Assembly (NCBI GenBank): GCA_030587475.2
Contig: JAUQYZ020000017.1
Coordinates: 1 to 19,006, forward strand
From: Candidatus Sigynarchaeum calidifontis
GTDB lineage: Archaea; Asgardarchaeota; Lokiarchaeia; Sigyniarchaeales; Sigyniarchaeaceae
DNA: 19,006 nt
Direction: 5' to 3'
The position numbers were made by a program, and so were the translations under genes. Shown here in pieces: positions 1,702 through 18,476 of this stretch (positions within the stretch are counted from its first letter, which is position 1; each line of letters opens with the position of its first letter). The notes under the pieces were generated by a model, which saw only the letters and a program-made list of their open reading frames with translations, had not been told where the DNA came from and did not search any database.

Positions 1702-1822
1702 GCGTCACGATCTCCGCAGAAATCATCAGAAAAATGACATGTTGGACATAATATAATGAGGTAGGGGATACCGAATTCGTGATATGGGTTCTCGAAGAGC
1801 CAATGCCTCTCTGACGGGGCAA

Positions 1823-2098
1823 TTAAAGTTCCCGTTTATAGGCTTTCTTTCTTGGTAAAACGGAAAGGATGATTATGGTATATTCAGGTTGTAAATCGAA
1901 TATTGCTCGATAATCTCCCACTCTTAGGCGATAATAACTTTTGTATCCTTTCAATTTTTTGATGTCCAATTCAGGGGAGAATCCGTCTCTTAGCTTGCGC
2001 AATTGTTCGGTTATACGCTCGCGGGTTGAAGAATCAAGGAGCTGGAGTTCTTTTTCCGCATTCTTCTCGAGAAAGACCTTAAATTTCGTGGAGCTCAA
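1823..2098 (-). CDS. relE: RelE/ParE-family toxin (mRNA interferase)
   Basis: 91 aa basic protein with IKKLKGYKSYYRLRVGDYRAIF and a C-terminal PRKKAYK, typical RelE motifs. TTG start overlaps the upstream small ORF. Confidence 0.9.
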   Translation of the reverse strand: MSSTKFKVFLEKNAEKELQLLDSSTRERITEQLRKLRDGFSPELDIKKLKGYKSYYRLRVGDYRAIFDLQPEYTIIILSVLPRKKAYKREL

Positions 2099-2249
2099 GC
2101 TGTCCTTTCCTCTTCAAAGATTCATACCTTTCAATTGCTTTCTTTTCATCGTCATCTGGCTCAACGACCCCGATGAGGCGCGAGTCGATGATGGCCTCTA
2201 TTCGTTCGAGCATGGCTTTTATTTCTTGAAGAGGTTTGTCCTCCACCAT
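2079..2249 (-). CDS. Putative cognate antitoxin (RelB-like), 56 aa
   Basis: Below the ORF-track size cutoff. Hand translation: MVEDKPLQEIKAMLERIEAIIDSRLIGVVEPDDDEKKAIERYESLKRKGQLELHEI*. Small with an acidic patch, directly upstream of the toxin and overlapping it by 20 nt. Confidence 0.75.
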   Translation of the reverse strand: MVEDKPLQEIKAMLERIEAIIDSRLIGVVEPDDDEKKAIERYESLKRKGQLELHEI

Positions 2250-2365
2250 TTTCTATCAGCTCTGCAGTACACATGCGAACCTATTGATTTATATTTGCTG
2301 GGTAAAACCTTTCGGTTAATCACACTTCTGAAAGCGACTTAGTTTAATTATGATGCAGACTCCCT

Positions 2366-3565
2366 TCAGCGCTTGAAAGCATCGCTGCAGAACTTGAACG
2401 CGGGCAAGATGTTTGTCCCGCAACCCAGGACATGCGGCGAGATGGCGACGGCCGGATCGTCGGGGTTGTGGAACTCGTGTTCGATGCCGTGCGCGAGTAA
2501 TGTCTCGTGCAATTGCCGCGTCGGGGGGCACAGGCCAAACTCGTCCTTCGCGTCGACGTAGATGAAGACCGGTTTCCCCTTCAACGCGCCCGGGTGCTCG
2601 TTAACCATCTCGCTCAAGTCGAACTTGCGCCAGTTCGCGATCGCCGCGTCGCTGGCGCTGGTGATCTTCCCTGCATCGTCACGTTTTATTGAAGGTACCA
2701 GTGGCGTGTCCTTTGAATAGATCATATCGATCGTGTCGACGATGTCGCTCCACTCGTGCTCCCCTTGCTTTTTTGCATATCTTTTACCAAGGAGCCGCTC
2801 GTACAAGGGCGAGTACAGCTTCCAGTCGACCATGGTCCAGAGCAAGTTGCCCGGCGCGAGCGATGCGACCGCGCCGAACACGCCCGGGTACTTGATCCCG
2901 AGATACATCGCCCCGTACCCGCCCATGGACGCGCCAGACACCGCCCTGTGGCCCGGATCGGCGAGCGTCCGGTAGTTGCGATCCACGTGGGCGACCACGT
3001 CGCGGGCGATGTAGTCCGCGTAGTTGCCCGAGTGCGGCGAGTTCACGTAAAAGCTCCCTTTCACGTTCGGCCTGCCCGTGATATCCTTGCCCCCACCGAG
3101 CCGTGGGAGATGGAGGCTCCCGTCGGGCTGCACGAGGATGAACGGCTCGATCTCGCCCCTGGTGATGAGCTCATCGAGCATCTCGTAGGTGGGAATCTTG
3201 TCGAGGTTGAACTCGCGGGCCATGCGCGCGGGAATCGCGTCGAAGGGAAAAGGGGCCTGGTCGATCTCCCGCCGGGACGTTATCGTCCATGACTTGTTGT
3301 TGGACCCGTACCCGTGCAAGAAATAAATGACGGGGTACCGCTCGTTCGTTTTTTCGTGATAGCCAGGTGGCAAATATATCCGCAAATCCCTGTCCGCGGG
3401 GCTGTCGAGCGGGTTGTTGTCCAAGCTCGCGGCGTGGATCGTGTCGATGCGATACCGGTCAGCGGATTGTCGGAATTTCTCGATCTTTCTCTTGCTCGAT
3501 TTCAGCTTGACCAAGAACGCGATGAACCGGAGCGCGATTTCCAGTTTTTCCATGGCATCATCCAC
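2366..3565 (-). CDS. Alpha/beta-hydrolase, putative esterase (Fes/S-formylglutathione hydrolase/feruloyl esterase-like)
   Basis: IYLPPGY...YPVIYFLHGYG, nucleophile elbow GASMGG, and candidate catalytic Asp (DAKDEF) and His (SPHVLG). Confidence 0.88.
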   Translation of the reverse strand: MDDAMEKLEIALRFIAFLVKLKSSKRKIEKFRQSADRYRIDTIHAASLDNNPLDSPADRDLRIYLPPGYHEKTNERYPVIYFLHGYGSNNKSWTITSRREIDQAPFPFDAIPARMAREFNLDKIPTYEMLDELITRGEIEPFILVQPDGSLHLPRLGGGKDITGRPNVKGSFYVNSPHSGNYADYIARDVVAHVDRNYRTLADPGHRAVSGASMGGYGAMYLGIKYPGVFGAVASLAPGNLLWTMVDWKLYSPLYERLLGKRYAKKQGEHEWSDIVDTIDMIYSKDTPLVPSIKRDDAGKITSASDAAIANWRKFDLSEMVNEHPGALKGKPVFIYVDAKDEFGLCPPTRQLHETLLAHGIEHEFHNPDDPAVAISPHVLGCGTNILPAFKFCSDAFKR

Positions 3566-3592
3566 CCTTTTCGTTTTGTTTGGAAAAAAAGG

Positions 3593-5041
3593 TCATGCCG
3601 GAGGCACGGCCGAACGCTTCTTCGCGTGCAAGGCGTCGAGCTTCTCGCGGATTTCTTGCAATTTCTTCCCGTGTATCGGATACTTCCAGAGCGCGACCAG
3701 GCCAATGGCAAGCACGATGGCTGGATAGACCCCGATGAGGATGCGGAGGAGATTGACCTGATCGGGACCGACCGACCCGGGTCCGAACACGCTCCATCCA
3801 GCACCCGAGAACGTGAGCCCGACGACGAGGTAATTAGCGATCGTCGAGAGCCGAATGATGAATGTTATCACGCCGTAATATGCCCCCGACCGCCGTGTTC
3901 CGAGGTTGACCTCGTCCTCGTCGATGATCTCGGCGATGCACTGGTCGTAAAAATAGATGGAACCGCCGGTGCCGAATCCCACGAAAACCATGGCGACGAA
4001 GCCGGATTGCAGGTCCCAAGCCATCATCAAGACCAGCAGCGATCCCGCCCACCATGCGAGCGCGACGATCCCGACGTATCTGGCGCCTTTAACCTGGCGT
4101 ATCTTTGTCCAAACAGGCATCGTCACCGCGCCGACGATGAACGAGAAGAGGAGGAGGATACCGCTCATGACAGAATCATTCTTGTTTATGCCGAGCGCGT
4201 AGGTGGCAAAAAGAGGGAACATGCTCGGGATGATGCCGTTGCAGATCCAGTAGGCAAAACCGGCGATCAGGAATATCCGGAACGACTTGTTCCTGAACGT
4301 TTGCTTGACCGAAGCCCCAAAGCTCAAGGCAGATTCGCTGTCCCTGGAAAACTCCACGCGTTCCTTGACACCAAACTTGATCACGAGAGTGTAGATCACG
4401 ATAACGATGATCCCGGCAAGAAACCCGCTGAGGATGTACTGGCTAGCGGTATATGGAAGGCCTCTATCATTCGCGATGTCCTCGATGATGATCGAGGGCA
4501 TGACGAACGCGAGGACGAGCGCCACGACGACAAGCATGCTGCGTAAACGGCCGACCTCCGACCTGTCTTTCATCGAAAGAAACATCTCCGAAAACAAGGC
4601 GTTGTAATTCACGTTGAACAGCGAGTACACGCCGTCGAACATAAAAAGCACGCAAGTAAAGTACACGAATTGGATTATCTTGTCGCTTGGCGTGTTGCCG
4701 GGCGGAGGGGTGAATAATAATACCATCATGATGGCCAGCGGAATGGCCCCGGCGATCATCCACGGGCGCCGGCGACCAAGGCGCGATTTCGTGCGATCCG
4801 ACAAGTTGCCGATGAGATTGTCGTTGATCGCGTTCCAAAAGGACCAGATGATGAATCCGACCGAGATCCACCGAACATCGAGCCCGATGACCGTGAAATA
4901 ATACGTGAATATGAGGAACGAGAATGTCTGGTACGCGACGTTGTCACCGACCTCGCCGAGTGCGAAAAATCTCTTGGCTCGCTTCGGCATGTCGATTTCC
5001 TTGCTTGTATCACCGCGTGATTCGCCCATGTTTTGCACCAC
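3593..5041 (-). CDS. MFS transporter, glycoside-pentoside-hexuronide (MelB-like) family
   Basis: About 12 hydrophobic segments, WNAIND...IGNLSDRTKSRLGRRRPW motif and AEIIDEDE...GTRRSGAYYG. The start may be the ATG at 5029. Confidence 0.92.
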   Translation of the reverse strand: MVQNMGESRGDTSKEIDMPKRAKRFFALGEVGDNVAYQTFSFLIFTYYFTVIGLDVRWISVGFIIWSFWNAINDNLIGNLSDRTKSRLGRRRPWMIAGAIPLAIMMVLLFTPPPGNTPSDKIIQFVYFTCVLFMFDGVYSLFNVNYNALFSEMFLSMKDRSEVGRLRSMLVVVALVLAFVMPSIIIEDIANDRGLPYTASQYILSGFLAGIIVIVIYTLVIKFGVKERVEFSRDSESALSFGASVKQTFRNKSFRIFLIAGFAYWICNGIIPSMFPLFATYALGINKNDSVMSGILLLFSFIVGAVTMPVWTKIRQVKGARYVGIVALAWWAGSLLVLMMAWDLQSGFVAMVFVGFGTGGSIYFYDQCIAEIIDEDEVNLGTRRSGAYYGVITFIIRLSTIANYLVVGLTFSGAGWSVFGPGSVGPDQVNLLRILIGVYPAIVLAIGLVALWKYPIHGKKLQEIREKLDALHAKKRSAVPPA

Positions 5042-5349
5042 TTAGCCATTATCCCTCGCGCCTATTTTAATTACCCACACCAGTTCCACGGACGAAGGTG
5101 GAATGATCGCCGGATAGTTCAGGGGGAGGCAAATTATCGAACGGGTATCGAACAGCCCCTGATCCTCACGTGGACCGCGAATCCAAAAGGGCCTGGGAGA
5201 AAAATTTCGACGGCTGCCCGTTTTCCGCGGCCTGGTTTCGTTACTAGCCCCCGTGTCAAGAATGAACAAGGCAAACGAATGGCCATGATTGCGATTAATA
5301 TTTAAAGGATACCATAGATCAGTTTATCTAGCGCCTAGAAATGGGTTGA

Positions 5350-5847
5350 ATGAAGGTGGCGAGTAGCTTCAAGAAAGTGAAGGACGCTTTCGTGCGGTTT
5401 TTCGAAGCGATCGCCGCCTTTTTCAAGAACTTGTTCAAGAAAAGAAGTGACGACAAAATGGGAGAAAACCCGGATTTCGACGAGGATTTGGGACCGCCAG
5501 CAGAGGAACCCGCGGCACCCAAACCCGTTTCGAGCAAGACCCCCGCCGGCACTGCGCCGAGGTCGATCGCGTCGAAGACACCCGCCGCAAGTGGTGGTAA
5601 AGATGTCTCCGTTTATTTTCAATCAACCATCGGGCCAGGCGAGAAGAAACAGAAGCTGCTCGTGAATACCGGCAATCAAGTTGGCGCCATCAAGCAGACG
5701 GTTGGCAACATGTTCGGCTTGGACCCGAACGATTTCCATCTCTCGCATGGTGGTGTCACGTTGGACGAGGGAGCCCCCTTGAGCAATTACAACGTGAACG
5801 ACGGGGACACCTTGCTGCTCATCCCGGCAAGCACCGCGGGCATGTAG
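5350..5847 (+). CDS. Ubiquitin-like modifier with N-terminal amphipathic helix and disordered linker; C-terminus IPASTAG-M
   Basis: The C-terminal ~80 aa align by eye with ubiquitin (DFHLSHGGVTLDEGAPLSNYNVNDGDTLLLI vs [31 protein letters not shown]). First gene of the E1-E2-JAMM-RING operon. Confidence 0.88.
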   Translation: MKVASSFKKVKDAFVRFFEAIAAFFKNLFKKRSDDKMGENPDFDEDLGPPAEEPAAPKPVSSKTPAGTAPRSIASKTPAASGGKDVSVYFQSTIGPGEKKQKLLVNTGNQVGAIKQTVGNMFGLDPNDFHLSHGGVTLDEGAPLSNYNVNDGDTLLLIPASTAGM

Positions 5848-5869
5848 AATCTCTCCGATCATTGCGGGG

Positions 5870-5893
5870 AAAAAAGACTCTTGTCTTTTTTTT
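5870..5893 (+). terminator. Inverted repeat with T-run between the Ubl and E1 genes (possible terminator/attenuator)
   Basis: AAAAAAGAC-TCTT-GTCTTTTTT perfect 9-bp stem ending in a T8 tract. Confidence 0.45.
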
Positions 5894-5912
5894 ATTCAAA
5901 TCATGACGGAGA

Positions 5913-7142
5913 ATGACGAACGTGGATAAATCCGATTTCTTCAACACGGAGCTGACGGAAAAGGAACGGGAACTGTACAACAGGCAATTCCGGTACGAAG
6001 GGTGGAACCAGTCCATCCTCAAGCGAGCCAGGGTGCTCGTCGCCGGCGTCGGCGGGCTCGGGTGCGAGATCGCCAAGAACCTGGCCATGGTAGGCATCGG
6101 CCATATCGACCTGGTCGATCTCGATGTCATCGAACATTCGAACTTGAACCGCCAGTTCCTGTTCCTCGAGGCGAACATCGGGGCGCCGAAGGCGACCGTC
6201 GCCGCCGAGAAGCTGCGGGGGATCAACCCCACGATCGAGATCACGGGCCATCACTCTGCGCTCGAGCGGCTCGACCCGGACATCTACCGGCGGGCGGACG
6301 TGCTGGTCGGGGGGCTCGATTCCGTCCTGGCACGCCAAAACCTGAATGCCCAGGCCATCCGCTTCAGGAAACCGCTCGTCGACGGCGGCGTCGGCGGGTA
6401 CAATGGCCACGTCTACACGATCATGCCGTACGAGAACGCTTGTTACGAGTGCCAGCCACATCCATCCGGCCCGAGCGACGAGATGGCCGCGTGCACCGTC
6501 GTCGGCGTGCCCCGCAAGCGCGTGCATTGCGTTTTCAAGGGAAACATGCTATTTCAAGACACGTTCAAGCACGACCCCGACCCGAAAAAGCTCGATGACG
6601 TGGAATTCGTGCGGAAAGAGGCAAACCGGCTCGCCCGCGAGTATAATTTTCTCCCGGAATTTTCCACGGGGGATGTCGTGAAGGTCCTCGACCGCCACGA
6701 CCCGGGCCTCATCACGATCAACGCGGTCATCTCGGCAATCCAATCGCACGAGGTGATCAAGATCGTGAACTGGAAGGCCGGGAACAAGGCGCTGGGAGAA
6801 CCGATGAAAACGTACCTGATATTCAACGGCATGACCATGAAGTTCTATTATATCGAGAAACCTCGAAACCCGGCTTGCCCGCAATGCGGCGACAACGTCA
6901 AGCGCGTGGGCATCGAGCTTGCGAGCACCGATCCTTGCCAGAAAATCATCGACATGCTGGTGGCAATGGGATTTAAAACGAGCCCGGACATGGAGCCGGT
7001 GCTCACGATGAACGATTTCAAGGGCGTCCGGGTGCTCGACTCGGAAAAGTCCGTCGCGGAGAACGAGCTGCGAACCTACGACCTCATCACCGTGGCCGGC
7101 TTCGCGGACGGGGAAGTGTTTATTACCTTGAAGATAAAGTGA
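5913..7142 (+). CDS. Ubiquitin-like activating enzyme E1 (ThiF/UBA3-like, with catalytic Cys and probable C-terminal ubiquitin-fold domain)
   Basis: YNRQ, VAGVGGLGCE, DLDVIEHSNLNRQFLF, Zn pairs CYEC and CPQC, catalytic-Cys motif MAACTV, and an ~80 aa C-terminal domain ending EVFITLKIK. Confidence 0.95.
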   Translation: MTNVDKSDFFNTELTEKERELYNRQFRYEGWNQSILKRARVLVAGVGGLGCEIAKNLAMVGIGHIDLVDLDVIEHSNLNRQFLFLEANIGAPKATVAAEKLRGINPTIEITGHHSALERLDPDIYRRADVLVGGLDSVLARQNLNAQAIRFRKPLVDGGVGGYNGHVYTIMPYENACYECQPHPSGPSDEMAACTVVGVPRKRVHCVFKGNMLFQDTFKHDPDPKKLDDVEFVRKEANRLAREYNFLPEFSTGDVVKVLDRHDPGLITINAVISAIQSHEVIKIVNWKAGNKALGEPMKTYLIFNGMTMKFYYIEKPRNPACPQCGDNVKRVGIELASTDPCQKIIDMLVAMGFKTSPDMEPVLTMNDFKGVRVLDSEKSVAENELRTYDLITVAGFADGEVFITLKIK

Positions 7143-7195: not shown

Positions 7196-7723
7196 ATGAG
7201 CTTGAGAACCACCAGGATCTCGCAAGATTTTGCAGCGTTGAAGAAAATGCTGAGCGAGGGAACCATCGTCCAGCTGAAAGGATTCGACAAGGATAGCAAG
7301 TCGATCGACCACCTTGCGGTGACGCTCGTCGGGCCAAAGGGAACGGCGTACCAAGGCGGCTTGTTCAAGCTGGAGATCAAGTTCCCGCCAGATTACCCCC
7401 AGCAACCACCCTTCGTGCGCCTGCATACCCCGATCTGGCATCCAAACTTTTGGCCGAAGCCATCCGAGTTTCCAGGCCAGCGGAACATCTGCCTGGCACT
7501 CGTCGACCCCTCGCTGGTCGGGACAAAAGGCGGGTGGAGCCCATCCAAGACCATCGTGACCGTCGTCCAGGCGATTATTGCCATGCTGAACACCAAGGGC
7601 CAGTACATCAACCCGACGGACGTGTTCAACAAGAAAGCAGCCGAGGAAATGCTTAGGGATCCGAAATCGTTTGACGAGAAGTGCAGGCAATTGACGAAGA
7701 AATACGCCACGGAAAAATGGTAA
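7196..7723 (+). CDS. Ubiquitin-conjugating enzyme E2 (UBC fold)
   Basis: GPKGTAYQGGLFKLEIKFPPDYPQQPPFVRLHTPIWHPN...ICL...WSPSKTIVTVVQAIIAML; HPN motif and catalytic Cys intact. Confidence 0.96.
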   Translation: MSLRTTRISQDFAALKKMLSEGTIVQLKGFDKDSKSIDHLAVTLVGPKGTAYQGGLFKLEIKFPPDYPQQPPFVRLHTPIWHPNFWPKPSEFPGQRNICLALVDPSLVGTKGGWSPSKTIVTVVQAIIAMLNTKGQYINPTDVFNKKAAEEMLRDPKSFDEKCRQLTKKYATEKW

Positions 7724-8574
7724 TGGTAATGGACATGGCAGAACAGCGAGACGGGGCTGGTAGCAAGGAGGATGCCCGGGAGCGCAAGCTCAAGGAAGAC
7801 TTGAAGCAAGAGCTGAAGGTCGAGCTTTTAAAGGAGATCTATGCCGAGCTGAAATCCGAGAAATCCGAGAAGGTCGACGTGGCAACGACGACGAAGGACA
7901 CGGTACTGCACATCAAGGAACACTTGCCCAAGATGGAAGTCCCTCCAGCAACACCGATTGCAGTGGCTGCTCCTTCAACGTCTTCCACTCCAGCCACGCC
8001 TTCCCCGCCTCAGGAACGCATCACGTTGACCGCGAAGGTGTTTCTCAAGATTGCCGCCCACGCGCTGAAATACGCTAACAACGGTATCCCCCGGGAGAAA
8101 TGGGTGGAGGTCATCGGCTTGCTTGCCGGAAAGCTCGACAACAACGGGGCCGTGCTGCACGTTGAGGACGCCTACCCGATGGGGCATGGAAATGCTGTTT
8201 ACGCCGAGATCAAGGAATACAAGAACTTTGTTCGTGCTTACAACGATTTGCGAGGACAAGGGCTCTTTGTTGCGGGTTGGTATCATTCTCATCCTGCGTA
8301 TGGCCTGTTCTTGAGCGACGAGGATATGGGCACGCAGGCCCGCTACCAGAAATTATGGGACAAGTCCATCGCCCTCGTCATCGACCCGTACCAGATCAAC
8401 GGCACCTCGTTCGGGTTCAACATCTTCAGAGCGAATTTAAAAACGAGGAAATGGTTCCCCGTGCCGTTTTCCTTCAAGAACGAGCTGGACACGAAAGTAA
8501 TCCCGGAACTGGTCGAATTCATCAATCCTATCGTGGATGGGAAGGCGCTTTTCATGGAATACGACCAGGGGTAG
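7723..8574 (+). CDS. JAMM/MPN+ metallo-isopeptidase (Rpn11/CSN5-like) with N-terminal extension
   Basis: EVIGLL and GWYHSHPAYGLFLSDED (E...HxH-x7-S-x2-D), then TQARYQ and ALVIDP. Start uncertain: in-frame ATGs at 7717, 7723, 7729 and 7735; 7723 overlaps the E2 stop (TAATG). Confidence 0.93.
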   Translation: MVMDMAEQRDGAGSKEDARERKLKEDLKQELKVELLKEIYAELKSEKSEKVDVATTTKDTVLHIKEHLPKMEVPPATPIAVAAPSTSSTPATPSPPQERITLTAKVFLKIAAHALKYANNGIPREKWVEVIGLLAGKLDNNGAVLHVEDAYPMGHGNAVYAEIKEYKNFVRAYNDLRGQGLFVAGWYHSHPAYGLFLSDEDMGTQARYQKLWDKSIALVIDPYQINGTSFGFNIFRANLKTRKWFPVPFSFKNELDTKVIPELVEFINPIVDGKALFMEYDQG

Positions 8575-8577
8575 AAC

Positions 8578-9714
8578 ATGGCACGTTTACGATGGTTCCA
8601 TTACTTGATCGTCCTTCTCATTTTCCTGGTTCTCGCAGTCCTGGCTGGCGTCCCCCTGGAACCCCCAGCAACGAACGATTTCTGGTCGTGGATGCTCGTC
8701 GGCGCCTGGACCATGCTCGGCATGAAGCTCGCCGACAGCGCCGCCTACCTGCGCTCGTTCAACTCGATGCAGAACCACGCGCTGTTCGTGTTCTGGACAA
8801 ACTTCGCCGCCCTCGTCTTCGGTGCATGGGGCAACTTCACGACCATCCCGTATCTCGCCGAGCCGGTCGTGGAAGTGCCCGCCGGCTGGATCGTGGTGAA
8901 CTGGTGGTCGCTGCTCTTTTCGGTCCCGTACTTCCTTTATGGAACCTACGCGATTCACGCGTGCTTCCGCCGGTACTTCTACGTGTACATCTTTGGAAAA
9001 TCGGTGAACTCCAAGAAATTCGGCGTCTTCGTCGTCGTGTTCGATGTCGTCTTTGAAGCATTGTACCTCGCGTTTTTATTTTTCTGGTTCGGCTCCGTGG
9101 ATGCCCCGCTCGACCTCGTCTCCCGGCACGTGGACCCGGCCGGGATCCTGTTCTTGCTCGTGTCCATCATCATCGCGGCCAGGTACGGGCGGTCGCCGTC
9201 GATCCCCGACATCAGCGCCCCGCTGCCCTCGCCCGTCCGGGCACGTCCCAGGCCGCAACCGGCCGCGCCGGAGCCCGTCCAGCGCGTTGCCCAGCCCGTT
9301 GCCCAGCCCGTTGCCCAGCCCGCACGGCCCGTCCAACCGGCCAGGAGCTGGGACGCGGGCGTGGCGCGGCGGGTGAGCGTGCGGGTGGCCGCGCCGGAGG
9401 CGGTCCGCGTCGAGCGGGTCAACATCGACGAGTTGCGCCCGAAAGGCAGCGTGCTCTCGAAGGAAGACTTCAAGTGCATTTTTTGCTTCAATTTATTCAA
9501 GAGCCCGGACGATGACAACCGGGGGGTCGTGATCTGCCCGTCATGCCGCCATCCGGCACACGCTGACGAGTTCCGGGAGTGGGCGCGGAATTCGAGCTTG
9601 TGCTCCCGCTGCGACGCCAAACTCCCCGAAAATTTCCGGAAAAGGCCGCGGATCGTGAGCGTGAAGGTGTACCTGGACGGGATGAAGCGTTTATCGAGCC
9701 AGATCAAGGGCTGA
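8578..9714 (+). CDS. Polytopic membrane protein (~6 TM) with Pro-rich linker and C-terminal RING-like zinc finger; putative E3 ligase
   Basis: Six hydrophobic segments in the first ~200 aa, then CIFC-x16-CPSCRHPAHADEFREW-x6-CSRC at 9475-9612 with the conserved RING Trp. Last gene of the Ubl-E1-E2-JAMM operon. Confidence 0.82.
   Translation: MARLRWFHYLIVLLIFLVLAVLAGVPLEPPATNDFWSWMLVGAWTMLGMKLADSAAYLRSFNSMQNHALFVFWTNFAALVFGAWGNFTTIPYLAEPVVEVPAGWIVVNWWSLLFSVPYFLYGTYAIHACFRRYFYVYIFGKSVNSKKFGVFVVVFDVVFEALYLAFLFFWFGSVDAPLDLVSRHVDPAGILFLLVSIIIAARYGRSPSIPDISAPLPSPVRARPRPQPAAPEPVQRVAQPVAQPVAQPARPVQPARSWDAGVARRVSVRVAAPEAVRVERVNIDELRPKGSVLSKEDFKCIFCFNLFKSPDDDNRGVVICPSCRHPAHADEFREWARNSSLCSRCDAKLPENFRKRPRIVSVKVYLDGMKRLSSQIKG
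9286..9322 (+). repeat. 12-bp tandem repeat x3 (GTTGCCCAGCCC) encoding VAQP repeats in the E3 linker
   Basis: Three perfect copies directly visible. Confidence 0.9.
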
Positions 9715-11448
9715 TCGGCACCAGATACCCGACTTGCCAGCTGTGCTCGCCGGGATGATCAATATCGTGTCCCCATTTTCCACGTGGTACACCTTGATGG
9801 CACGGTTCTCGTCCATGGTAATCCCGCCGTAGACCAGGTGAAAGTCGGGAGGGAAAAGGCCAAAAATGTTGCCCACCGTATGCTTCAAACTCTCGATTTG
9901 CACGTTTTTATCTATTTCCAACTCTATTTGCTTCTCTCCGGGGCCTATCGTAGCTTGGAAAAAAACTTTAATGGTTTCTGTCTTGGAAACAGGCGTCTTG
10001 CTCGTGATCGCGATGCCGGCGCTATTTTCGGGCGTTTTCGCCCGTGGGGTCGCGGGGGGCACGCCGGCCATGGCTCCTGGCTGGCCCGCGGGCGCCGGCT
10101 CGGGCGTGGACGTGGCCGGGCCAGCAGGTGCGGACGTGACGCTGCTGCCGGGCTCTGCGTCCTTCTTGGGCCTGATCGAGAACGCGAACGTCTTGGCGAG
10201 CTCGTCGTAGAAGCGCCAGAGCTGCAGCAGGCTGGTGGCCTTCAAGTAATCCCCGCGGCCGATATCCCGCCCGAGCTTTTCCATGAGCAAGTCGTCCGCC
10301 TCCCCTAGGCCGATTGTGTAGATCACGACGCCTTCCTTCGTGAGGAATTCCCTCGCGACCGGGATGGGGTTCACGGGTATGCCGCTGGCCTCGTCGCCCT
10401 TGTTCGGGTTCCCGTCGCTGAGGAGGATGATCATGGTCGGGTCGGGCTTGCCCGTGCGTGGATTGACAGGAAATTGCGCGATTTGCTCCGCCGCGATCTT
10501 CAGCGCCACGCTCATCGCGGTCAAGCCGACCGCTTTCTTGGTTTTCTCCGTGATGTAGTATGCTAGCGTGTTCAAGTTCAAGTCTCGCAGCTTCCCGCTG
10601 CATTGTATCACGGGGGACAAGACCCCGTTGGTGTCCTCCATCTCGAGCACCTCAACCTCGTCGCCGAACGCGATGACTTGCACGTTCTCGCCGAGGCCAC
10701 GCTTGGCCTTGAGGCTCAAGTAAAGCAGCGATGCAGCCGCCGCGCTCGCGATGCGTGAGACGGTCGCCCCGTCCTGGAACTGGTTAAAGAACTCCTCCAG
10801 GTGGGATGCCATGGCATACTCGCCCTTCAGATAATCGATGATGCTGCTAACATCTTGCACGACGAAGTCCTCGCTGAGCATGGATCCCGAAACGTCGATG
10901 CACAAGATCGTGTTGAACCCCATCTCCTTGGCGGGCACGAGGTCGAACAAGATCTCCATGCCCGAGCTGTCGACGACGGCGACATCCCCGTCGCCGATCG
11001 ACGGGTTCGTGTCGATGATTTTCAATCGCAGCGGGCAGATCTCGGCATCTTTCCACTCGAGCTCCATGCCCTTGAACACCGGGCGGCGCTTCAGCAATTT
11101 CTGGATGCCGCTCACGTGCTCGGACACCCAGACGATGGCAGATTCGATGGGCACCTTGCCTTGCGAGTCGACCGAGATTTGCAGTTCCGTGATGCCGCCC
11201 CGTGTCGCGATCTTCCGGATGTCGACATCGGGCGAGCCGCCCATCTCCAACGAGGCGATGATCTCCTCGTCGACCACCATGGTACCGGGCGAGCAATCGT
11301 CGTCCGACACGACTTGCATGGCTGTCTTGATGCGTCCATCATCGCTCGGGATCACGACGACGTCAAAATCCTCCAATTTTCGGGTCTCCATGTCCTGGCG
11401 GTTCAGCTTGGCTTGGCCGCCCATGTGTCCTCCATTGATGAGCTGCAT
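9691..11448 (-). CDS. Cdc48/p97 N-domain-like + VWA (MIDAS) + linker + C-terminal ubiquitin-like domain protein
   Basis: The N-terminus resembles the archaeal Cdc48 N domain (GQAKLNRQDMETRKLEDFDVVVI...PGTMVVDEEIIASLEM...VDIRK; LKRRPVFKGMEL...LRLKIIDTNP). VWA motifs LCIDVSGSM, VIAFGD, GLTAMSVAL, ILLSDG and IYTIGLG. The C-terminal Ubl (9736-9966) is 43/77 identical by hand count to the free Ubl. Confidence 0.85.
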   Translation of the reverse strand: MQLINGGHMGGQAKLNRQDMETRKLEDFDVVVIPSDDGRIKTAMQVVSDDDCSPGTMVVDEEIIASLEMGGSPDVDIRKIATRGGITELQISVDSQGKVPIESAIVWVSEHVSGIQKLLKRRPVFKGMELEWKDAEICPLRLKIIDTNPSIGDGDVAVVDSSGMEILFDLVPAKEMGFNTILCIDVSGSMLSEDFVVQDVSSIIDYLKGEYAMASHLEEFFNQFQDGATVSRIASAAAASLLYLSLKAKRGLGENVQVIAFGDEVEVLEMEDTNGVLSPVIQCSGKLRDLNLNTLAYYITEKTKKAVGLTAMSVALKIAAEQIAQFPVNPRTGKPDPTMIILLSDGNPNKGDEASGIPVNPIPVAREFLTKEGVVIYTIGLGEADDLLMEKLGRDIGRGDYLKATSLLQLWRFYDELAKTFAFSIRPKKDAEPGSSVTSAPAGPATSTPEPAPAGQPGAMAGVPPATPRAKTPENSAGIAITSKTPVSKTETIKVFFQATIGPGEKQIELEIDKNVQIESLKHTVGNIFGLFPPDFHLVYGGITMDENRAIKVYHVENGDTILIIPASTAGKSGIWCRSALDLAR

Positions 11449-11454
11449 GGTCGA

Positions 11455-12573
11455 TCACGTGGGATGCTTGGTGCGAATCGAGTCCGAAGGCGCCTTCTCC
11501 CGTATCGCCCGCTTCTCCAGGTCGCCCCGGTACTTGTCGAGCGCGTCCCGCTCTTTCCGCAATTTCTCGTATTCCTTCTGGAGGCCATCCCGGTCTCGGT
11601 TGAATTTCTCCCGCTCCCGGTCGAGGTTATCGCGATCCCGCTGGATGTTATTTATTTCCTTCTGGGCGTCCTTCAATTCCCGGTTCTTCCGCGCGATCTC
11701 GTCATCCAAGGCATCGCGTTTTCTCGAGAGCGCGGGTATCTCGTCGTTGATACGCCGCAACTCGTCCCGTGCCTTGTCTTTTCGCCTCTCCAGGTCGTCG
11801 ATCTCGTTCTTGAGATGCTTCACCTTGTCCTGGTACCTTTCTATCTCGTTATCGAGGTCCCGCTTTTTTCTCTCGAGCTGCTTCTCGGCCTCGTCGACCC
11901 GCCTCGCCCGGCGATCGAGATCTTCCTCCATGTCACGGAGCTTGCGCTTGGCATCCTCGAGTTGCTTGCTGTTCCTCGCGAGGTCTTGCTTTTCCTTCTC
12001 GATCTGGCGCTGGACATCGGCGAGGTCGTCCTTGAGCTGCTTGTTGCGGTTGGCGAGTGCCTCGTTCTCGGCCGCGAGATTTTTTTTCCACTTCTCGAGC
12101 CCCTCTTGCTCGTTGCGCAGCACCCGGATGCGCCCCTCGCGCTCCTCCTTCTCGCTCTTGTATTTTTGCACGTCGTCGATCAGCTTGTTAACTTCTTGAT
12201 CGAGTCTTTTTTTATCTTCCCGGAGGTCCTCGATATCCTTTTCCATGATGCGCGATGCTTGTCTCTTCCGCTCGAGCTCGCGTTCCTCGTTCGCGATGAG
12301 CTTGCGCACGCCGCCGAGGTCGTTGGTGGCCTTCTCTTTCTCCTTGAGCAAGGCCTTGATCTCGTCCTCCTTTTCCTTCCGGCTGGCTTCCAGCTGCGCG
12401 ATGACATTCTTGTGGTCCTCGATGCGCTTCAAGATCTTCTCCCATTCCCGCCGCTCGCGTTCTAGCTTTGCACGCTCCTCTTCCATCCGGCGAGTCGCTT
12501 CATCTGGCTCTACAGCGTCGCCGGGTGTCTTGCTGGAGACTTGAAACTTCGGAGGGGGCTTGTTTGACATCAT
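11455..12573 (-). CDS. Long coiled-coil protein, unknown function
   Basis: About 340 aa of nearly uninterrupted E/K/R/D/L-rich heptads, no TM and no globular domain. Ends 6 nt before the VWA-Ubl gene. Start at ATG 12573 or 12570, or GTG 12576. Confidence 0.85.
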   Translation of the reverse strand: MMSNKPPPKFQVSSKTPGDAVEPDEATRRMEEERAKLERERREWEKILKRIEDHKNVIAQLEASRKEKEDEIKALLKEKEKATNDLGGVRKLIANEERELERKRQASRIMEKDIEDLREDKKRLDQEVNKLIDDVQKYKSEKEEREGRIRVLRNEQEGLEKWKKNLAAENEALANRNKQLKDDLADVQRQIEKEKQDLARNSKQLEDAKRKLRDMEEDLDRRARRVDEAEKQLERKKRDLDNEIERYQDKVKHLKNEIDDLERRKDKARDELRRINDEIPALSRKRDALDDEIARKNRELKDAQKEINNIQRDRDNLDREREKFNRDRDGLQKEYEKLRKERDALDKYRGDLEKRAIREKAPSDSIRTKHPT

Positions 12574-12735
12574 CACACCTTCATGAAACGCGTGAATGGC
12601 CTAGCCGGAATCCGGGACATCGGCGGGAATCGAGATCCTTAGTTCTTGTAGGTTTTTAGCCTAATAAATCATGCTCGCTTGCCGCGATGACTTTCAAGAC
12701 GAATGGAATGGTGGGGAAATAAAAAAAAAACAAGT

Positions 12736-13983
12736 CTATTCCATCGTTAGCCCGTAATAGATGCCGATCACGAAGAATGATGCCAGCGAATTTGCGAGAA
12801 ACTGCGGGTTGAAGAAATTACGCAGCAACAAGATCGACATGAAAGTTACGAGCAAGGAAACCAGGATGATGATCGCCTTTTTCCGCAAGATGCCCGTGGA
12901 CTGCCTCGCGACCTTGATGTAGGTGAGGACAATGTTCACCCCGACCAGGCCAAGGGCGACGACCCACACGTAAATGATCACGCCGAGCACGTCTTTCAAG
13001 CCCGGCGCGACCAGTAACACGAAAGCGAACACGATGATGAGCACCTCGGTGATCAACAGGAAGAAAGTCAGGTACGGGATTTTTTTGTTCTGGATATCCT
13101 TCTCGATCGTGTTGCTCATGAACATGAGGCTGCTACCGAGACATATGAATGTTAAAAATGTCAGCACGTTAGTCGTGAGAATCCCACCGAGCACCCATGT
13201 CGGCATGGCATTGAACGCCATGATGCCCGACCAGTCAAACGCAGGATCGAGGGCGCTCCAAAATGCCGAGAATTGCCAGGCGAACATGCCGATGCCACCC
13301 GCGATCAAGCCCCACGCGTAGTTCATGTACGAGTGCGCTTTCCCCTGTCGATCGGGATTTTTCCGCTCCTTCATTGCCTTGTACAAGAGCATGAACCCGA
13401 AGATGAAAAACATCATGTAAACGAGATTGAAAAAGACCGTCTCCATGGCATCGACGACGGGATTCCCCGTTCTCCACTTGAAAGAATACTGGGTGAGGGA
13501 GTCCAGCTCGTTCACGATCACGATGTAGAACACCATGGTGTAGAGCGGCTTCCCCTCCTTGTCGACCGTCGTGAAGTTCTCCATGCCCCAGTCCATCTTG
13601 AAATGCTGGTACGTGAGGTTGGTCTCAATGATGGACGTCTGGTGGGCCCAGGTTTTTTTCGGCACGAATTGCGACGAGTTCCAGTTCGAATTCAAGCCCT
13701 TGACCATCTCGGTCTCGTTGACGGCGTAGACCGACACCTTCTGTGTCGACCGGATCACCATGACATTCGTATCCGGCGTCAGCGTTATCCTCACTGGCGG
13801 GCCCGGCGGTTTCCCGTCCCACGTTTCGGCCAGGCGCTGCACGACGATGGCGGAGTTGGTCTGGCCTTTCGGGGCCAGATCCCCCCGGATCTCGTCCAAA
13901 GCTGCGACATTTTGCGCGATAAAAAAGAAAACAATGAAACCCGTGCATAGAATGAGCGCACGGGACCGGTTCGTGATTTTCAT
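12736..13983 (-). CDS. Membrane protein: signal peptide, ~150 aa extracellular domain, seven TM helices, no cytoplasmic output domain
   Basis: N-terminal hydrophobic stretch ending in VAA, a soluble beta-rich region with several NxS/T sequons (NET, NSS, NLT, NFT), then seven hydrophobic segments to the C-terminus. Confidence 0.75.
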   Translation of the reverse strand: MKITNRSRALILCTGFIVFFFIAQNVAALDEIRGDLAPKGQTNSAIVVQRLAETWDGKPPGPPVRITLTPDTNVMVIRSTQKVSVYAVNETEMVKGLNSNWNSSQFVPKKTWAHQTSIIETNLTYQHFKMDWGMENFTTVDKEGKPLYTMVFYIVIVNELDSLTQYSFKWRTGNPVVDAMETVFFNLVYMMFFIFGFMLLYKAMKERKNPDRQGKAHSYMNYAWGLIAGGIGMFAWQFSAFWSALDPAFDWSGIMAFNAMPTWVLGGILTTNVLTFLTFICLGSSLMFMSNTIEKDIQNKKIPYLTFFLLITEVLIIVFAFVLLVAPGLKDVLGVIIYVWVVALGLVGVNIVLTYIKVARQSTGILRKKAIIILVSLLVTFMSILLLRNFFNPQFLANSLASFFVIGIYYGLTME

Positions 13984-14201: not shown

Positions 14202-14669
14202 ATGTCTTCCTCCACAGAGGCTATCACTTACCGGGTGAACATTTCGAGCAAAAACCGGAACGTGCAAATCACGATCGAGCCGCAAAAATTCATGAACGCG
14301 TTCCTCGGCAAAAAAATCGGGGATACCGTGAACGGCGGCCTCTTCGGATACGAGGGGTACGAGTTCACGATAACGGGCGGTTGTGACACGGCCGGTTTTC
14401 CGATGCGGAAGGACGTGCAAGGCGGCGTCAAGAAACGAATACTCGTCGGAAAGCCGAGTACCGGCATCAAGGCCAAGCGTTTCAACGAAGGTGATCGCAT
14501 CCGCATCCTCGTGCGAGGCAACACGGTCACCGACCAGATCGTGATGGTGAATTGCGTGGTATCGAAGGAAGGCAAGGTGAAACTCTTCGTGCCCAAGGAG
14601 GGCGATGCCGCCGCGCCCGCGGCCGAGGGTGACGAGAAAGACAAGGGCAAGAAAAAGAAAGAGAAATAA
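14202..14669 (+). CDS. rps6e: 30S ribosomal protein eS6
   Basis: FLGKKIGDTVNG, GYEFTITGGCDTAGFPMRKDVQG and VRGN motifs of S6e. Confidence 0.96.
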   Translation: MSSSTEAITYRVNISSKNRNVQITIEPQKFMNAFLGKKIGDTVNGGLFGYEGYEFTITGGCDTAGFPMRKDVQGGVKKRILVGKPSTGIKAKRFNEGDRIRILVRGNTVTDQIVMVNCVVSKEGKVKLFVPKEGDAAAPAAEGDEKDKGKKKKEK

Positions 14670-14685
14670 TAAAGGCGAATGACCC

Positions 14686-14868
14686 ATGGTAAAGAAACAA
14701 GTTTGCTCGTTTTGCCGGAATGAGATAGAATTTGGGCGAGGAACGATGCGCATCCTGAACGACGGCACGATCTTGGTTTTTTGCAGTGTCAAATGCAAGA
14801 CAGCAATGATAGAGCATAAAAAGAACCCGCGCAAGACGAAATGGACGCGCATCTACGGAACGGACTGA
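14686..14868 (+). CDS. rpl24e: 50S ribosomal protein eL24
   Basis: CSFC...GRGTMRILNDGTILVFCSVKC...KNPRKTKWT. Confidence 0.97.
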   Translation: MVKKQVCSFCRNEIEFGRGTMRILNDGTILVFCSVKCKTAMIEHKKNPRKTKWTRIYGTD

Positions 14869-14966
14869 ATTTTTCTCGTTATCCCCTTGTCTTCTAACAA
14901 ATGCGAGGTGCCCCGCCCTTTGCGAGGTCTTGACTTTCTGGCTTTGACAAGTTAAGTTAAGATAAA

Positions 14967-15749
14967 TTAAACGAACAAACGCCCGCCCGTCACGAGCAAC
15001 GACTGGCCAGTCATGTAATTGCTGTCGTCAGACGCCAGGAAGAATGCCACGCCCGCGACGTCGTCGGGCAGCCCCACGGGCTTGTGCTTGAAACATGGCT
15101 GCTCCCACTCGTTGGCCGATGCGAGATCCTCGACCGACGCCATGCCGTAGATCGGCGTCTTGATCACCCCGGGACAAATGCAGTTAACGGCGATGCGATA
15201 GCTGCCAAGCTCGGCCGCGAGCGTCTGCGTCAGGCTCACCACGCCGAACTTGGACGCAGAGTACGCGCCGAATAGCGCTCGCCCCCGCTTGCCCCGTTGC
15301 GACGACATGTTGATGATCTTCCCGCGCAGCATCCCGTCTGGTACTTCGCGTTTCATCATGCGCTTTGCGAAATATTTGCACATGAGGAAGACCGAGCGCA
15401 AGTTAACCGCCATGACCTTGTCCCAGTCCTCCTCCTTGGTCGAAATGACCCTGGCCATCGGGCCGCCGATACCTGCATTATTGACCAGCACGTCGAGCAC
15501 CGGGAACGCCGCGTAGTATTTCTCGACCATCTGTTGCACTTGCTCGCTGTTCGTCACGTCGGCGACCAGCACCAGGCTCTTCCGTCCAAGCGCCTCGATT
15601 TCCCGCGCGGTCGCCTCGGCCGCTTCCACCTTGATGTCGTTCACCGCCACGTCCGCACCTTCTCTCGCGTAACGCAAGGCGATAGCCTTGCCGATGCCCG
15701 ATCCCGCCCCTGTTATGAGCGTCGATTTCCCGTCTAGCCGATGTTCCAT
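14967..15749 (-). CDS. Short-chain dehydrogenase/reductase (classical SDR)
   Basis: TGAGSGIG, NNAG and YSASK catalytic motif, plus the C-terminal YMTGQSLLVTGG. Confidence 0.95.
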   Translation of the reverse strand: MEHRLDGKSTLITGAGSGIGKAIALRYAREGADVAVNDIKVEAAEATAREIEALGRKSLVLVADVTNSEQVQQMVEKYYAAFPVLDVLVNNAGIGGPMARVISTKEEDWDKVMAVNLRSVFLMCKYFAKRMMKREVPDGMLRGKIINMSSQRGKRGRALFGAYSASKFGVVSLTQTLAAELGSYRIAVNCICPGVIKTPIYGMASVEDLASANEWEQPCFKHKPVGLPDDVAGVAFFLASDDSNYMTGQSLLVTGGRLFV

Positions 15750-15926
15750 GCAATTTCACCCGTAGCTATGTTGGGTCAAGCTTTGAAATACCTATACATT
15801 ATGTCTTTGATGGCCTTTTTATATCGTGTTTCCAAGCCAAGGATGGATCGCGCGTGATGCCGGCTAACTAGGCAGGTATCGATGCAATCTAGATGTGAGA
15901 TAGGTGCTAAATGCACCGAGAATGCT

Positions 15927-16580
15927 TCATAAGGTGTGGATCAAGATGGCGCGGATCAGCTCGCGGGTCGTCTCGTCGTCTTCCGTCGTCTCGGTCTTGA
16001 GCACCGCCTTGAGATCCTCGATGGCCTCGAGCACGTCCCCCATCTCCTTCTGGATCGACTTCGTGTTGTCGGGGAGACGCCCGTCCCATTTCGCGATGTA
16101 AGCATCGACGGCCTTGGTTGCGGCATCCTTGTCCAGCGTCAAATCGAGTTCCTTGATCCACAGCTCGACCTCTCGCCTTGCAGCATTTATCGACCCCGAT
16201 GCGTGAACCGCGTTGACCCCTTTAGCTATGCCGTACTTGCCACGGAGGCAACCCTTCACGCGCTTGGCGTCTTCGACGAATCGCGGGCCGATCAGATCGC
16301 GCATGGCGCCCACGATGCCGTTTCCCTCGACGACCAGGACGAGCACGCCGACGGGGACGGTCATGATGGCCATCAAGCCTTGGAAGTACGGCTGGCCCTC
16401 GTGTTCCGAGAAATGTCGCTTGGCGAGATCCAGGGTGACTGGCGCCTGGGCGAAGGCGATTATCGACGAGCCAGGTAGTTTTTTTATGGCTTTCAGCACG
16501 TTCACGCCGATCTGGCGGCGCAGCACGCCATCAGGCTTCACGAGCACGAGCGTGCGCTCGATCTTGGTGTCGTGGCTCAT
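15927..16580 (-). CDS. ndk: Nucleoside diphosphate kinase-family protein with C-terminal helical extension
   Basis: ERTLVLVKPDGV, LRGKYG and NAVHASGS (phospho-His). True start is likely the ATG at 16580 (MSHDTKIERT), since the longer ORF would overlap infB. Confidence 0.88.
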   Translation of the reverse strand: MSHDTKIERTLVLVKPDGVLRRQIGVNVLKAIKKLPGSSIIAFAQAPVTLDLAKRHFSEHEGQPYFQGLMAIMTVPVGVLVLVVEGNGIVGAMRDLIGPRFVEDAKRVKGCLRGKYGIAKGVNAVHASGSINAARREVELWIKELDLTLDKDAATKAVDAYIAKWDGRLPDNTKSIQKEMGDVLEAIEDLKAVLKTETTEDDETTRELIRAILIHTL

Positions 16581-16667
16581 GAGATGTCCCTCGAAACCGT
16601 GGTTTGCTAGACCTCGCCCTTCGCGAGATTTATCATTTGCCGCGCCTTCTAGCACCAGTGATAGCCC

Positions 16668-18476
16668 ATGCCAACCCCCGCTTCCGAGCAAAAAAAGGTC
16701 AGGGCGCCGATACTATGCGTTCTCGGCCACATCGACCATGGTAAAACGAGTATCCTCGATTTTATCCGTGGAACGGTCGTGCAAAAGCGGGAAGTCGCAG
16801 GCATCACGCAGCACATCGGCGCATCGTTTTTACCCATCGATGACATCGCGAAATTCTGCAAATTGAGCCCGGAAATAGCTAGCAAGCTCATCGTGCCGGG
16901 ATTGCTCGTGATCGACACCCCGGGACACTCTGCTTTCGTCAATCTACGGAAACGGGGAGGCGCGGTCGCCAACATCGCCATCCTCGTCGTCGAGGTAACC
17001 TCGGGCCCGATGCCCACGACATGGGAGGCCGTGCGCATCTTGCGCGAGCGCAAGGTGCCGTTCGTCGTCGCGGCCAATAAGCTCGACCTCATCGATGGGT
17101 GGCGATCGGATCCGAACGTCCGTGGCTTCAAGCAAGCCTACGCTAAACAAGACCAGCGGACGCGCGAGCTCCTCGACAACGTGATCTACCAGTGGATGGC
17201 AGATTTCAATGCCGAGGGTTTTAAAAACGTCGACCGGTACGACAACATCAAGGACTTCACCCAGAGCCTTGCCATCGTTCCCACGTCTGCCCGCACGGGC
17301 GAGGGCATTCCCGACCTCTTGCTGGTGCTCATCGGCCTCGTCCAGCAGTACTTGCAAAAGCACATCATCTACACGGACGGCCCTGCAAAGGGCGTCGTGC
17401 TGGAGGTGAAATCCACGCAAGGGCTGGGAACCACGCTCGACGCGATCGTGTACGACGGGTACCTCAAGAAAAACGACACGATCATCGTCGGCACGCTCGG
17501 CGAGCCCATCCAGACGAAGATCCGTGCACTCTTGCAACCGAAGCCAATGGACGAGATACGCGACCCGCGATTCAAGTTCAACAACGTCGACATCGTGCAC
17601 GCCGCCGCGGGCGTGAAGATCGCCGCCCCCGGTCTCGAGACCGTGTTGGCTGGAGCCCCGTTCATGTCCGTGTGGTCGGATGCCGACAAGGAGAAGGCCA
17701 TCGAGCAGATCACGGCCGAGATGAGGGAAATCGCCATCGAGGTCGAGGACAAGGGTGTCGTGCTCAAGGCCGATTCGATCGGATCGCTCGAAGCCACGGT
17801 GCAGCTGTTCAAGGAGAACGGCGTGAGCATCCGGCGCGCCAGCGTGGGTGACATCGCGAAAAAGGACGTGGTCGATGCCGCGGCGAGCCAGTCGGATGCA
17901 TCGTACCTGGCCGTCGTTCTGGGTTTCGGCGTCAAGGTCTTGCCGGACGCGCTTGCCGAAGCGAACAAGCAAGGGATCCGGATCTTCACCAACGACGTGA
18001 TCTATCGTCTTCTAGAGGATTACAAGGCATACGTTGATAAGGTCAAGGAGGACGAGAAACTCGGCGTGTTTTCTGCCCTCATCAAACCAGGCGTGCTCAA
18101 GATATTGCCAGAATACGTGTTCCGGCGCTCGAACCCCGCCGTGTTCGGTGTCCGAGTTGAAAAAGGCAGCGCGATACCAAAAATTGGCCTGGTGAACCAG
18201 GACGGCGAGAACGTCGGCAAGATCCACCAGATCCAGGCCGACAACGAGTCGGTCAAGCTGGCGAAGATGGGGCAAGAAGTCGCCATCTCCATCAACGACA
18301 TCACGTTTGGCCGGCAGGTAAAGGAGACCGACACGCTGTACATCGCGGTGCCCGAATCGCACGTCCGCGTGCTCAGGACCAAGTTCCGGGACGATTTGCG
18401 GCCGGACGAGCTCGAGGCGCTGCTCCAGTACGTGGAAATAATGAGAAAGAAAGAATCTGCCTGGTGGGGCATTTAA
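16668..18476 (+). CDS. infB: Translation initiation factor aIF5B (IF-2)
   Basis: RAPILCVLGHIDHGKT, AGITQHIGA, IDTPGH, NKLD and KADSIGSLEA; 602 aa, the archaeal size. Confidence 0.98.
   Translation: MPTPASEQKKVRAPILCVLGHIDHGKTSILDFIRGTVVQKREVAGITQHIGASFLPIDDIAKFCKLSPEIASKLIVPGLLVIDTPGHSAFVNLRKRGGAVANIAILVVEVTSGPMPTTWEAVRILRERKVPFVVAANKLDLIDGWRSDPNVRGFKQAYAKQDQRTRELLDNVIYQWMADFNAEGFKNVDRYDNIKDFTQSLAIVPTSARTGEGIPDLLLVLIGLVQQYLQKHIIYTDGPAKGVVLEVKSTQGLGTTLDAIVYDGYLKKNDTIIVGTLGEPIQTKIRALLQPKPMDEIRDPRFKFNNVDIVHAAAGVKIAAPGLETVLAGAPFMSVWSDADKEKAIEQITAEMREIAIEVEDKGVVLKADSIGSLEATVQLFKENGVSIRRASVGDIAKKDVVDAAASQSDASYLAVVLGFGVKVLPDALAEANKQGIRIFTNDVIYRLLEDYKAYVDKVKEDEKLGVFSALIKPGVLKILPEYVFRRSNPAVFGVRVEKGSAIPKIGLVNQDGENVGKIHQIQADNESVKLAKMGQEVAISINDITFGRQVKETDTLYIAVPESHVRVLRTKFRDDLRPDELEALLQYVEIMRKKESAWWGI

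Follow-up and report, generated by a model that had tools for sequence, protein, structure and literature searches.

Can a protein of 585 residues, with binding domains of its own, serve as a ubiquitin-like modifier? The question is raised by a locus of the lokiarchaeon Candidatus Sigynarchaeum calidifontis (assembly GCA_030587475.2; 5.0 Mb, 54% GC), within the first 19,006 nucleotides of contig JAUQYZ020000017.1, which are called the window here. At 9691-11448 on the minus strand lies a gene (P0001) recognized from its open reading frame, its Pfam matches and ten full or partial orthologues, which fuses a Cdc48/p97-type N domain and a VWA domain to a ubiquitin-like (Ubl) domain at the C terminus. 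Together with the coiled-coil gene directly upstream of it (11455-12576, minus), it converges on a plus-strand operon that encodes a free Ubl, activating (E1) and conjugating (E2) enzymes, a JAMM protease and a RING-like membrane protein. The evidence suggests, with a probability that we put at roughly 55%, that the fusion is a conjugatable, cargo-bearing member of the operon's own modifier family, which ends in Ala-Gly (motif STAG).

The domain anatomy proposed by the first-pass annotation was borne out by structure models and alignments. Residues 1-175 (10924-11448, minus) form a two-lobed Cdc48/p97-type N domain: the Pfam match of the fusion protein to CDC48_N is weak (E 0.025), 47 of the 62 family members match it (best E 1.3e-10), and the model (predicted local distance difference test, pLDDT, 93.9 for residues 1-175 and 92.8 for residues 1-430) has the anticipated double-psi-barrel fold, aligning with the CDC48A N domain over 162 residues (VIA Z 15.0, root-mean-square deviation (rmsd) 3.0) and with p97-N at a template-modelling (TM) score of ~0.68 (Foldseek); the next structural matches are PEX1-N, Sec18/NSF-N, UFD1 and VAT-N. 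Residues 176-425 (10174-10923, minus) adopt a Rossmann-like VWA fold with the DxSxS...T...D signature (Pfam 25.5 bits, cut-off 23.8; VIA Z ~21), and the residues of its metal-ion-dependent adhesion site (MIDAS; D185, S187, S189, T310 and D345) are invariant in eight aligned fused orthologues and invariant or nearly so across the 62 family members. A Pro/Ala-rich linker (residues 426-494; 9967-10173, minus), in which the alignment of orthologues identifies a conserved SKTP-type motif and only two of 69 columns are invariant (K484 and P486; eight orthologues), leads to the Ubl domain (residues 495-571; 9736-9966, minus; Pfam ubiquitin 29.8 bits, cut-off 25.4), after which a 14-residue extension and the stop codon (9691-9735, minus) complete the gene. 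As had been proposed, the Cdc48-type N domain comes without AAA modules (D1, D2); a VWA domain follows it instead, and the remainder is linker and Ubl. Trimming at Gly571 would leave 571 residues.

The fused Ubl aligns without gaps with the free Ubl of the operon, 43 of 77 residues being identical, exactly as first counted by hand; a BLASTP match between the two proteins (56/111, E 1e-33) extends into the SKTP-containing linker. Anchored at the C terminus, the domain also aligns ungapped over 76 residues with ubiquitin (sequence from match P0052), Gly571 falling on Gly76, and the profile of the Ubl family matches ubiquitin chains in the PDB. The IPASTAG tail and the extension behind it are as first reported. 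The perfect conservation of the tail, claimed at the outset, holds for Pro566, Ser568, Ala570 and Gly571 within residues 566-571 (9736-9753, minus) and fails at positions 567 and 569, which vary in one and two of the ten orthologues, respectively. The Ala-Gly end is retained in all ten, while the extension varies as expected of a dispensable peptide: its lengths are 0, 0, 1, 2, 2, 5, 5, 6, 6 and 14 residues with no sequence in common, so that two orthologues stop exactly at the glycine. Among eight orthologues, four of six tail columns are invariant, compared with 21 of 71 in the Ubl body and none of 14 in the extension.

The free Ubls of the family obey the same rule, all 51 distinct sequences having Ala-Gly; 24 stop there and the others carry 1-6 residues more. 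Tandem genes of two and three STAG units (P0036, P0047, P0181-P0189), in which each unit has its own acidic/SKTP leader and an Ala-Gly end at the junction, resemble an archaeal polyubiquitin-like precursor. Because the free Ubls and the tandem junctions agree in this way, the glycine is evidently the family's working end. In the window, DNA comparison with the same-genus relative L008 indicates that the extension finishes in codons read from the opposite strand of the RING gene's end (the last 24 nucleotides overlap its 3' end), and L008 has a stop codon and a short spacer in their place; a second record, P0200, carries the identical extension. Since its sequences are unrelated among orthologues, its own sequence is partly RING antisense and its place is taken by a stop codon in a relative, the extension is disposable; in the window it arises in part by read-through into RING antisense. 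A functional role for this peptide was ruled out on its lack of conservation and its partly antisense origin.

At least ten fused orthologues exist, a count that word-based searches keep low by missing known members; a final search for additional fused orthologues found nothing new. They share 47-85% identity and come from independent assemblies. Records of close homologues bear the names Ca. Sigynarchaeum springense, Ca. Sigynarchaeota and Ca. Lokiarchaeota; both trees place P0009, an orthologue that its depositor labelled Hodarchaeota, within the clade of the others. In the Ubl tree, which has 80 columns, an unsettled bootstrap and rough support elsewhere, the fused Ubls form one clade (99/96); in a quick tree of the cargo, for which the long-form family was reduced to 14 rows, the fused cargoes form one clade (93), and its sister group (100) consists of Ubl-less paralogues from the family, one of them encoded in this genome. 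Among the 400 Asgard genomes that are GTDB representatives, the Ubl-fused form was seen in this genus only. Fused and free Ubl of this genome differ at 14 of 22 fourfold-degenerate sites, and fused orthologues differ from one another at 50-81% of such sites; because silent sites are near saturation, the match between the two Ubls is not due to recent copying. The silent-site divergence and the monophyly of the fused Ubls thus rule out that the tails are identical because of a recent duplication or a gene conversion. The body of the fused Ubl drifts faster than the free Ubl (45 of 77 versus 62 of 77 residues identical between the window and L004), yet its tail is retained. These comparisons indicate that the reactive end is under selection and that the fusion is old within one Asgard family, to which it is confined.

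All nine orthologue clusters with context adjoin a Ubl-E1-E2-JAMM-RING operon, always behind the coiled-coil gene, either tail-to-tail with the RING gene (the window, L002, L008, L116, L118, and L117 with an insertion between) or head-to-head with the Ubl gene (L004, L090, L006); in Lokiarchaeia without the fusion, the coiled-coil gene is still the divergent neighbour of the operon. The free Ubl (5350-5847, plus) has an N-terminal amphipathic helix and an acidic/SKTP leader, and ends in STAG plus one residue. The E1 (5913-7142, plus) is closest to UBA3 (E 4e-44), its Cys194 aligning with the catalytic cysteine. The E2 (7196-7723, plus) has an HPN motif and Cys99, and a search with it as query found no second E2 in the genome, which is 89% complete. 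The JAMM/JAB protease (7681-8574, plus; true start perhaps a few codons downstream) has an intact Glu...His-x-His-x7-Ser-x2-Asp motif. The last gene (8578-9714, plus) encodes a membrane protein with a C-terminal RING-like zinc finger, a putative ligase (E3) by its weak Pfam RING match, RING-like Cys/His pattern, hydrophobic segments and retention in the operon. By their motifs the operon enzymes look active. The SKTP-type motif is common to the fusion linker, the leader of the free Ubl and both ends of the coiled-coil orthologues, and four of the 13 SKTP words in the ~4,300 open reading frames of the genome fall in these three genes; its lysine is a candidate acceptor, or the motif a candidate phosphosite.

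The cargo has a history of its own. Ubl-less Cdc48N-VWA proteins occur in 251 of the 400 Asgard genomes, and the trees show that the fused cargo arose once, long ago, as a duplicate of this widespread protein. A GCS2-family carboxylate-amine ligase is encoded near Ubl-less copies both in this genome and, across several lineages, at 13 further loci, of which two are near-duplicates; an amidohydrolase accompanies these copies, and most of the loci examined are not beside ubiquitin genes. The ligase retains its conserved motifs and resembles YbdK. Because the Ubl-less copies sit beside this ligase/amidohydrolase module, the module is more likely than the Ubl to have been the original partner of the cargo. 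The suggestion in the first-pass annotation that the N domain might read Ubls is unsupported, though not refuted, Cdc48N-VWA being mostly Ubl-less and beside the GCS2 ligase rather than ubiquitin genes; a complex prediction for residues 1-430 with the Ubl scored 0.00 and counts neither for nor against it. Nor was there support for Ubl-less Cdc48N-VWA proteins serving the GCS2 ligase as Pup-like tags with a terminal Glu: such a Glu is present in 19 of 112 and missing from the closest paralogues. In this genome the Ubl-less paralogue (L084, contig C178, 783-2096) is near a 1,334-residue GCS2-family ligase (3003-7007) whose C-terminal region is long and rich in beta structure; C207 encodes another, shorter GCS2 ligase and C88 the amidohydrolase. 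A long form (~660-780 residues; loci L015-L038, and C63:64366-66081 in this genome), in which extra barrel-like repeats and a Pro-rich tether precede Cdc48N-VWA, is present in nearly all other Lokiarchaeia. A feature search of the Atlas that left VWA clusters aside gave no score above 0.81.

Other proteins carry the same Ubl. Behind a zinc-knuckle/coiled-coil domain it keeps Ala-Gly in 15 of 15 sequences, and single examples behind roadblock, HerA-like ATPase, longin-like (by eye) and unknown cargoes (P0085, P0096, P0111, P0090, P0199) all end at the glycine; P0089, a reductase N terminus joined to the Ubl, may be a chimeric assembly. A membrane-protein fusion between two free Ubl genes (L071:5776-6585) has a C-terminal Ubl of the family that lost its tail, indicating that the fold does not need the tail. 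In the Ubl tree, the Ubls fused to zinc knuckles are separate from those fused to VWA, and in five genomes of one other genus (L069, L070, L072, L073, L075) the zinc-knuckle-Ubl gene is immediately preceded by the GCS2 ligase and followed by the amidohydrolase, all on the same strand; a relative in L074 lies near a Ubl operon instead, and the zinc-knuckle gene of this genome stands alone, without Ubl. This pattern, two events in all, is suggestive of two lineages having independently joined the Ubl to a gene with ties to the ligase-hydrolase module.

If the fusion is conjugated, the following pathway may be proposed: cleavage by the JAMM protease after Gly571, a step unneeded in orthologues that stop there; adenylation of Gly571 by the UBA3-like E1, formation of the thioester and transfer to the single E2; transfer to a lysine of a target, possibly the coiled-coil protein or SKTP-bearing partners, under direction of the membrane RING protein; recruitment of partners by the Cdc48N-VWA docking module that the target would then bear, through the MIDAS site and the N-domain cleft, with the companions of the parent gene, the GCS2 ligase and the amidohydrolase, as plausible candidates; and reversal of the link by the JAMM protease. 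The RING-directed transfer and the recruitment of partners are the weakest of these steps. Still more speculatively, and with the odds clearly against it, the Asgard cascade could install whole docking proteins and thereby couple two modification systems, a Cdc48N-VWA protein laid out like the N-terminal half of DEPDC5 and taken from an Asgard-wide amide ligase/amidohydrolase module being ligated through a built-in Ala-Gly Ubl, in parallel with the zinc-knuckle gene of the same ligase-hydrolase operon that gained its Ubl independently elsewhere.

Several observations weigh against conjugation of the fusion. Its end is Ala-Gly rather than Gly-Gly, which is absent from the fusion and from all 51 free Ubls of the family, and no biochemical work on any STAG Ubl was found in the literature. 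A conserved tail can bind an active site without being transferred. The RING assignment has Pfam E values of only 0.014-0.042, and the ten related sequences represent one evolutionary origin, not ten tests. The position equivalent to Ile44 is Ser in 35 of 35 free Ubls and Val or Ala in all ten fusions, several other positions fixed in free Ubls are altered in fusions, and recognition by E1, E2 or E3 may therefore differ. In favour of conjugation, ubiquitin-equivalent positions 8, 68 and 70-76, which from established E1-Ubl structures form the E1-facing side, are kept or conservatively changed, while positions 4, 12 and 14 diverge; with the change at the Ile44 equivalent, the fused Ubl thus retains its activation end while displaying a different surface. 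A conjugatable modifier is expected to be small and of a single domain, and the fusion has three domains. Yet unlike the Ubls of integral (type 2) UBL/UBX adaptors, this Ubl within a multidomain protein has a reactive terminal glycine that is invariant in ten of ten orthologues.

The new surface, which affects the Ile44 equivalent and the face of strands 1-2, suits an integral Ubl that is not transferred at all and acts as a docking handle or decoy on the E1, the JAMM, the RING protein or a Cdc48/proteasome-type receptor; the tail would then enter an active site, perhaps to be trimmed or charged, and the protein would be an adaptor or regulator that brings Cdc48N-VWA to the cascade. The faster evolution of the fused Ubl and the three Cdc48 paralogues of the genome agree with such a role, and Cdc48-N and VWA domains are binding modules. 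We regard it as a serious alternative, albeit one that we would not expect to prevail: integral UBL domains usually lose the terminal glycine, as the membrane-protein fusion in L071 has done, and the two orthologues that end at the glycine, with extensions that mirror those of free modifiers, point to a required free carboxylate. The long unstructured linker, which ends with the SKTP leader also present in the free Ubl, raises another reading, in which a cut upstream of the Ubl releases an SKTP-led second small modifier and leaves Cdc48N-VWA, stand-alone in most Asgard genomes, to act separately. This is improbable, given that the linker, with two invariant columns among 69, has no conserved cleavage site, that JAMM proteases cut behind a Ubl rather than ahead of it (PMC6043591) and that the fusion is intact in all orthologues seen. 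Slightly more improbable still is an activated protein that joins itself or the free Ubl through SKTP lysines to make a polymer or scaffold; chicken OASL conjugates mainly to itself (PMC8764230), SKTP motifs are shared by linker, free Ubl and coiled-coil neighbour, and the Lys48 equivalent of the fused Ubl is Val or Ile, but the SKTP lysines are no more than candidate acceptors, and the motif could be a phosphorylation or binding site. A neutral relic of recent duplication or an assembly artefact, its tail the same for lack of time, would fit a free Ubl gene 4 kb away and an extension that is junk read-through; it has scarcely any probability left, being already refuted by the near-saturated silent sites, the monophyly and the ten orthologues from independent assemblies. 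Conjugation of the whole protein therefore remains the reading that we favour.

Cargo-bearing modifiers as such have precedent. Chicken OASL, a 61-kDa protein, is conjugated through its C-terminal Ubls (PMC8764230) and offers, by analogy, the best functional precedent: like the fusion, avian OASL is a multidomain protein of ~60 kDa with a C-terminal Ubl and an intact tail, and it is conjugated whole, as the fusion would be. Unlike the fusion, OASL is eukaryotic and carries tandem ISG15-like Ubls with the end LRLRGG on an OAS enzyme cargo; the cargoes are not homologous, and no shared origin is implied. Bacterial BilA/BubA modifiers carry N-terminal domains (10.1101/2024.11.21.623966), namely coiled coils, disordered tails, DUF1508 or more beta-grasp domains, and are likewise operon-encoded Ubls behind extra domains together with E1, E2 and JAMM; theirs is the operon's only modifier, whereas a free Ubl, a UBA3-like E1 and a RING E3 coexist with the fusion. 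In Caldiarchaeum subterraneum, pro-ubiquitin is trimmed by the Rpn11-JAMM of its operon and then charged (PMC5654768, PMC6043591). That operon and the Helarchaeia cascade (10.1101/2023.07.25.550441) share the gene set of the window, a short disposable peptide after the reactive glycine and a tail of the length of ubiquitin's; their modifiers are single-domain and end in Gly-Gly, unlike the Ala-Gly modifiers described here with their membrane E3 and a second copy bearing a 494-residue cargo.

The cargo resembles Cdc48, p97 and VAT in its two-lobed N domain and departs from them in having a VWA domain next and no AAA modules; the fused Ubl, unlike the UBX domains of Cdc48 cofactors, retains a free-modifier tail. 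A Cdc48-type N domain followed by a VWA fold without ATPase recalls the N-terminal half (NTD and SABA) of DEPDC5/Iml1 of GATOR1/SEACIT. In Foldseek, the top matches of the two-domain model are to DEPDC5/Iml1 (~430 columns, E 1e-10), at a TM score of 0.35-0.37 and an rmsd of ~11; taken singly, the N domain matches Cdc48-N better (Z 15.0) than 9o5a_B (Z 8.8), and the VWA domain is nearer generic VWA domains. The DEPDC5 chain was not identified among the best 50 VIA matches for the whole model, of which the longest alignments are with the KICSTOR-GATOR1 chains 9o5d_E and 9o5a_D (267 and 258 residues, Z 16.7), over the second N lobe and the VWA domain; 9o5a_D is, by its length, probably SZT2, which would then share part of the layout of the fusion. 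Unlike DEPDC5, the fusion lacks the C-terminal SHEN, DEP and CTD regions and has linker and Ubl instead, and Pfam IML1 has no match in this genome or the 62 family members and none near the cut-off in five genomes searched. Common ancestry of Cdc48N-VWA and the N-terminal half of DEPDC5 is plausible, the domain order that they share being a lead and no proof. The passages found of Liu et al. (10.1101/2020.10.19.343400) report NPRL2-like proteins and name no DEPDC5 homologue. The fusion is neither canonical ubiquitin, being multidomain and ending in Ala-Gly, nor Cdc48, nor DEPDC5.

Other features of the locus and genome complete the picture. The N-terminal helix of the free Ubl (5350-5450, plus) is strongly amphipathic (hydrophobic moment 0.65-0.76, against a rough genome background with a 99th percentile of 0.57) and may tether the free Ubl to the membrane; it is kept in three relatives (noted at L004:8204-8677 and L076:548-1108) and absent in L090, and gene callers often start downstream of it. 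Elsewhere in the genome (L110:1447-1735, contig C61), a second ubiquitin-like gene lies head-to-head with a two-domain E1; in this assembly a small insertion containing a stop codon seems to interrupt it, with a Gly-Gly end downstream, so that either a pseudogene or a mistake of assembly is conceivable. Immediately upstream of the coiled-coil gene, a 415-residue membrane protein (12736-13983, minus) has no Pfam match, and a gene of the same length holds the equivalent position in L117. Window positions 1-5041 and 14202-18476 encode ordinary neighbours, identified by translation of open reading frames and, for the esterase alone, by Pfam: UvrB, a RelE-type toxin-antitoxin pair, an esterase, a major facilitator superfamily transporter, ribosomal proteins S6e and L24e, a short-chain dehydrogenase, nucleoside diphosphate kinase and aIF5B.

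The searchable literature, outside which most subscription papers lie, yielded no description of the fusion architecture, of a Lokiarchaeal Ubl-VWA protein or of an Asgard DEPDC5; the fusion is thus undescribed. To our knowledge, the archaeal ubiquitin systems tested so far all use small single-domain Gly-Gly tags. If the proposed reading is correct, the attachment of a functional module by E1, E2 and E3, known from avian OASL, would also exist in prokaryotic relatives of eukaryotes, and with an Ala-Gly end. It would at the same time open two undescribed Asgard gene sets to experiment: the STAG Ubl cascade, and the Cdc48N-VWA/ligase/hydrolase module, the docking protein of which comes nearest in appearance to DEPDC5's front half.

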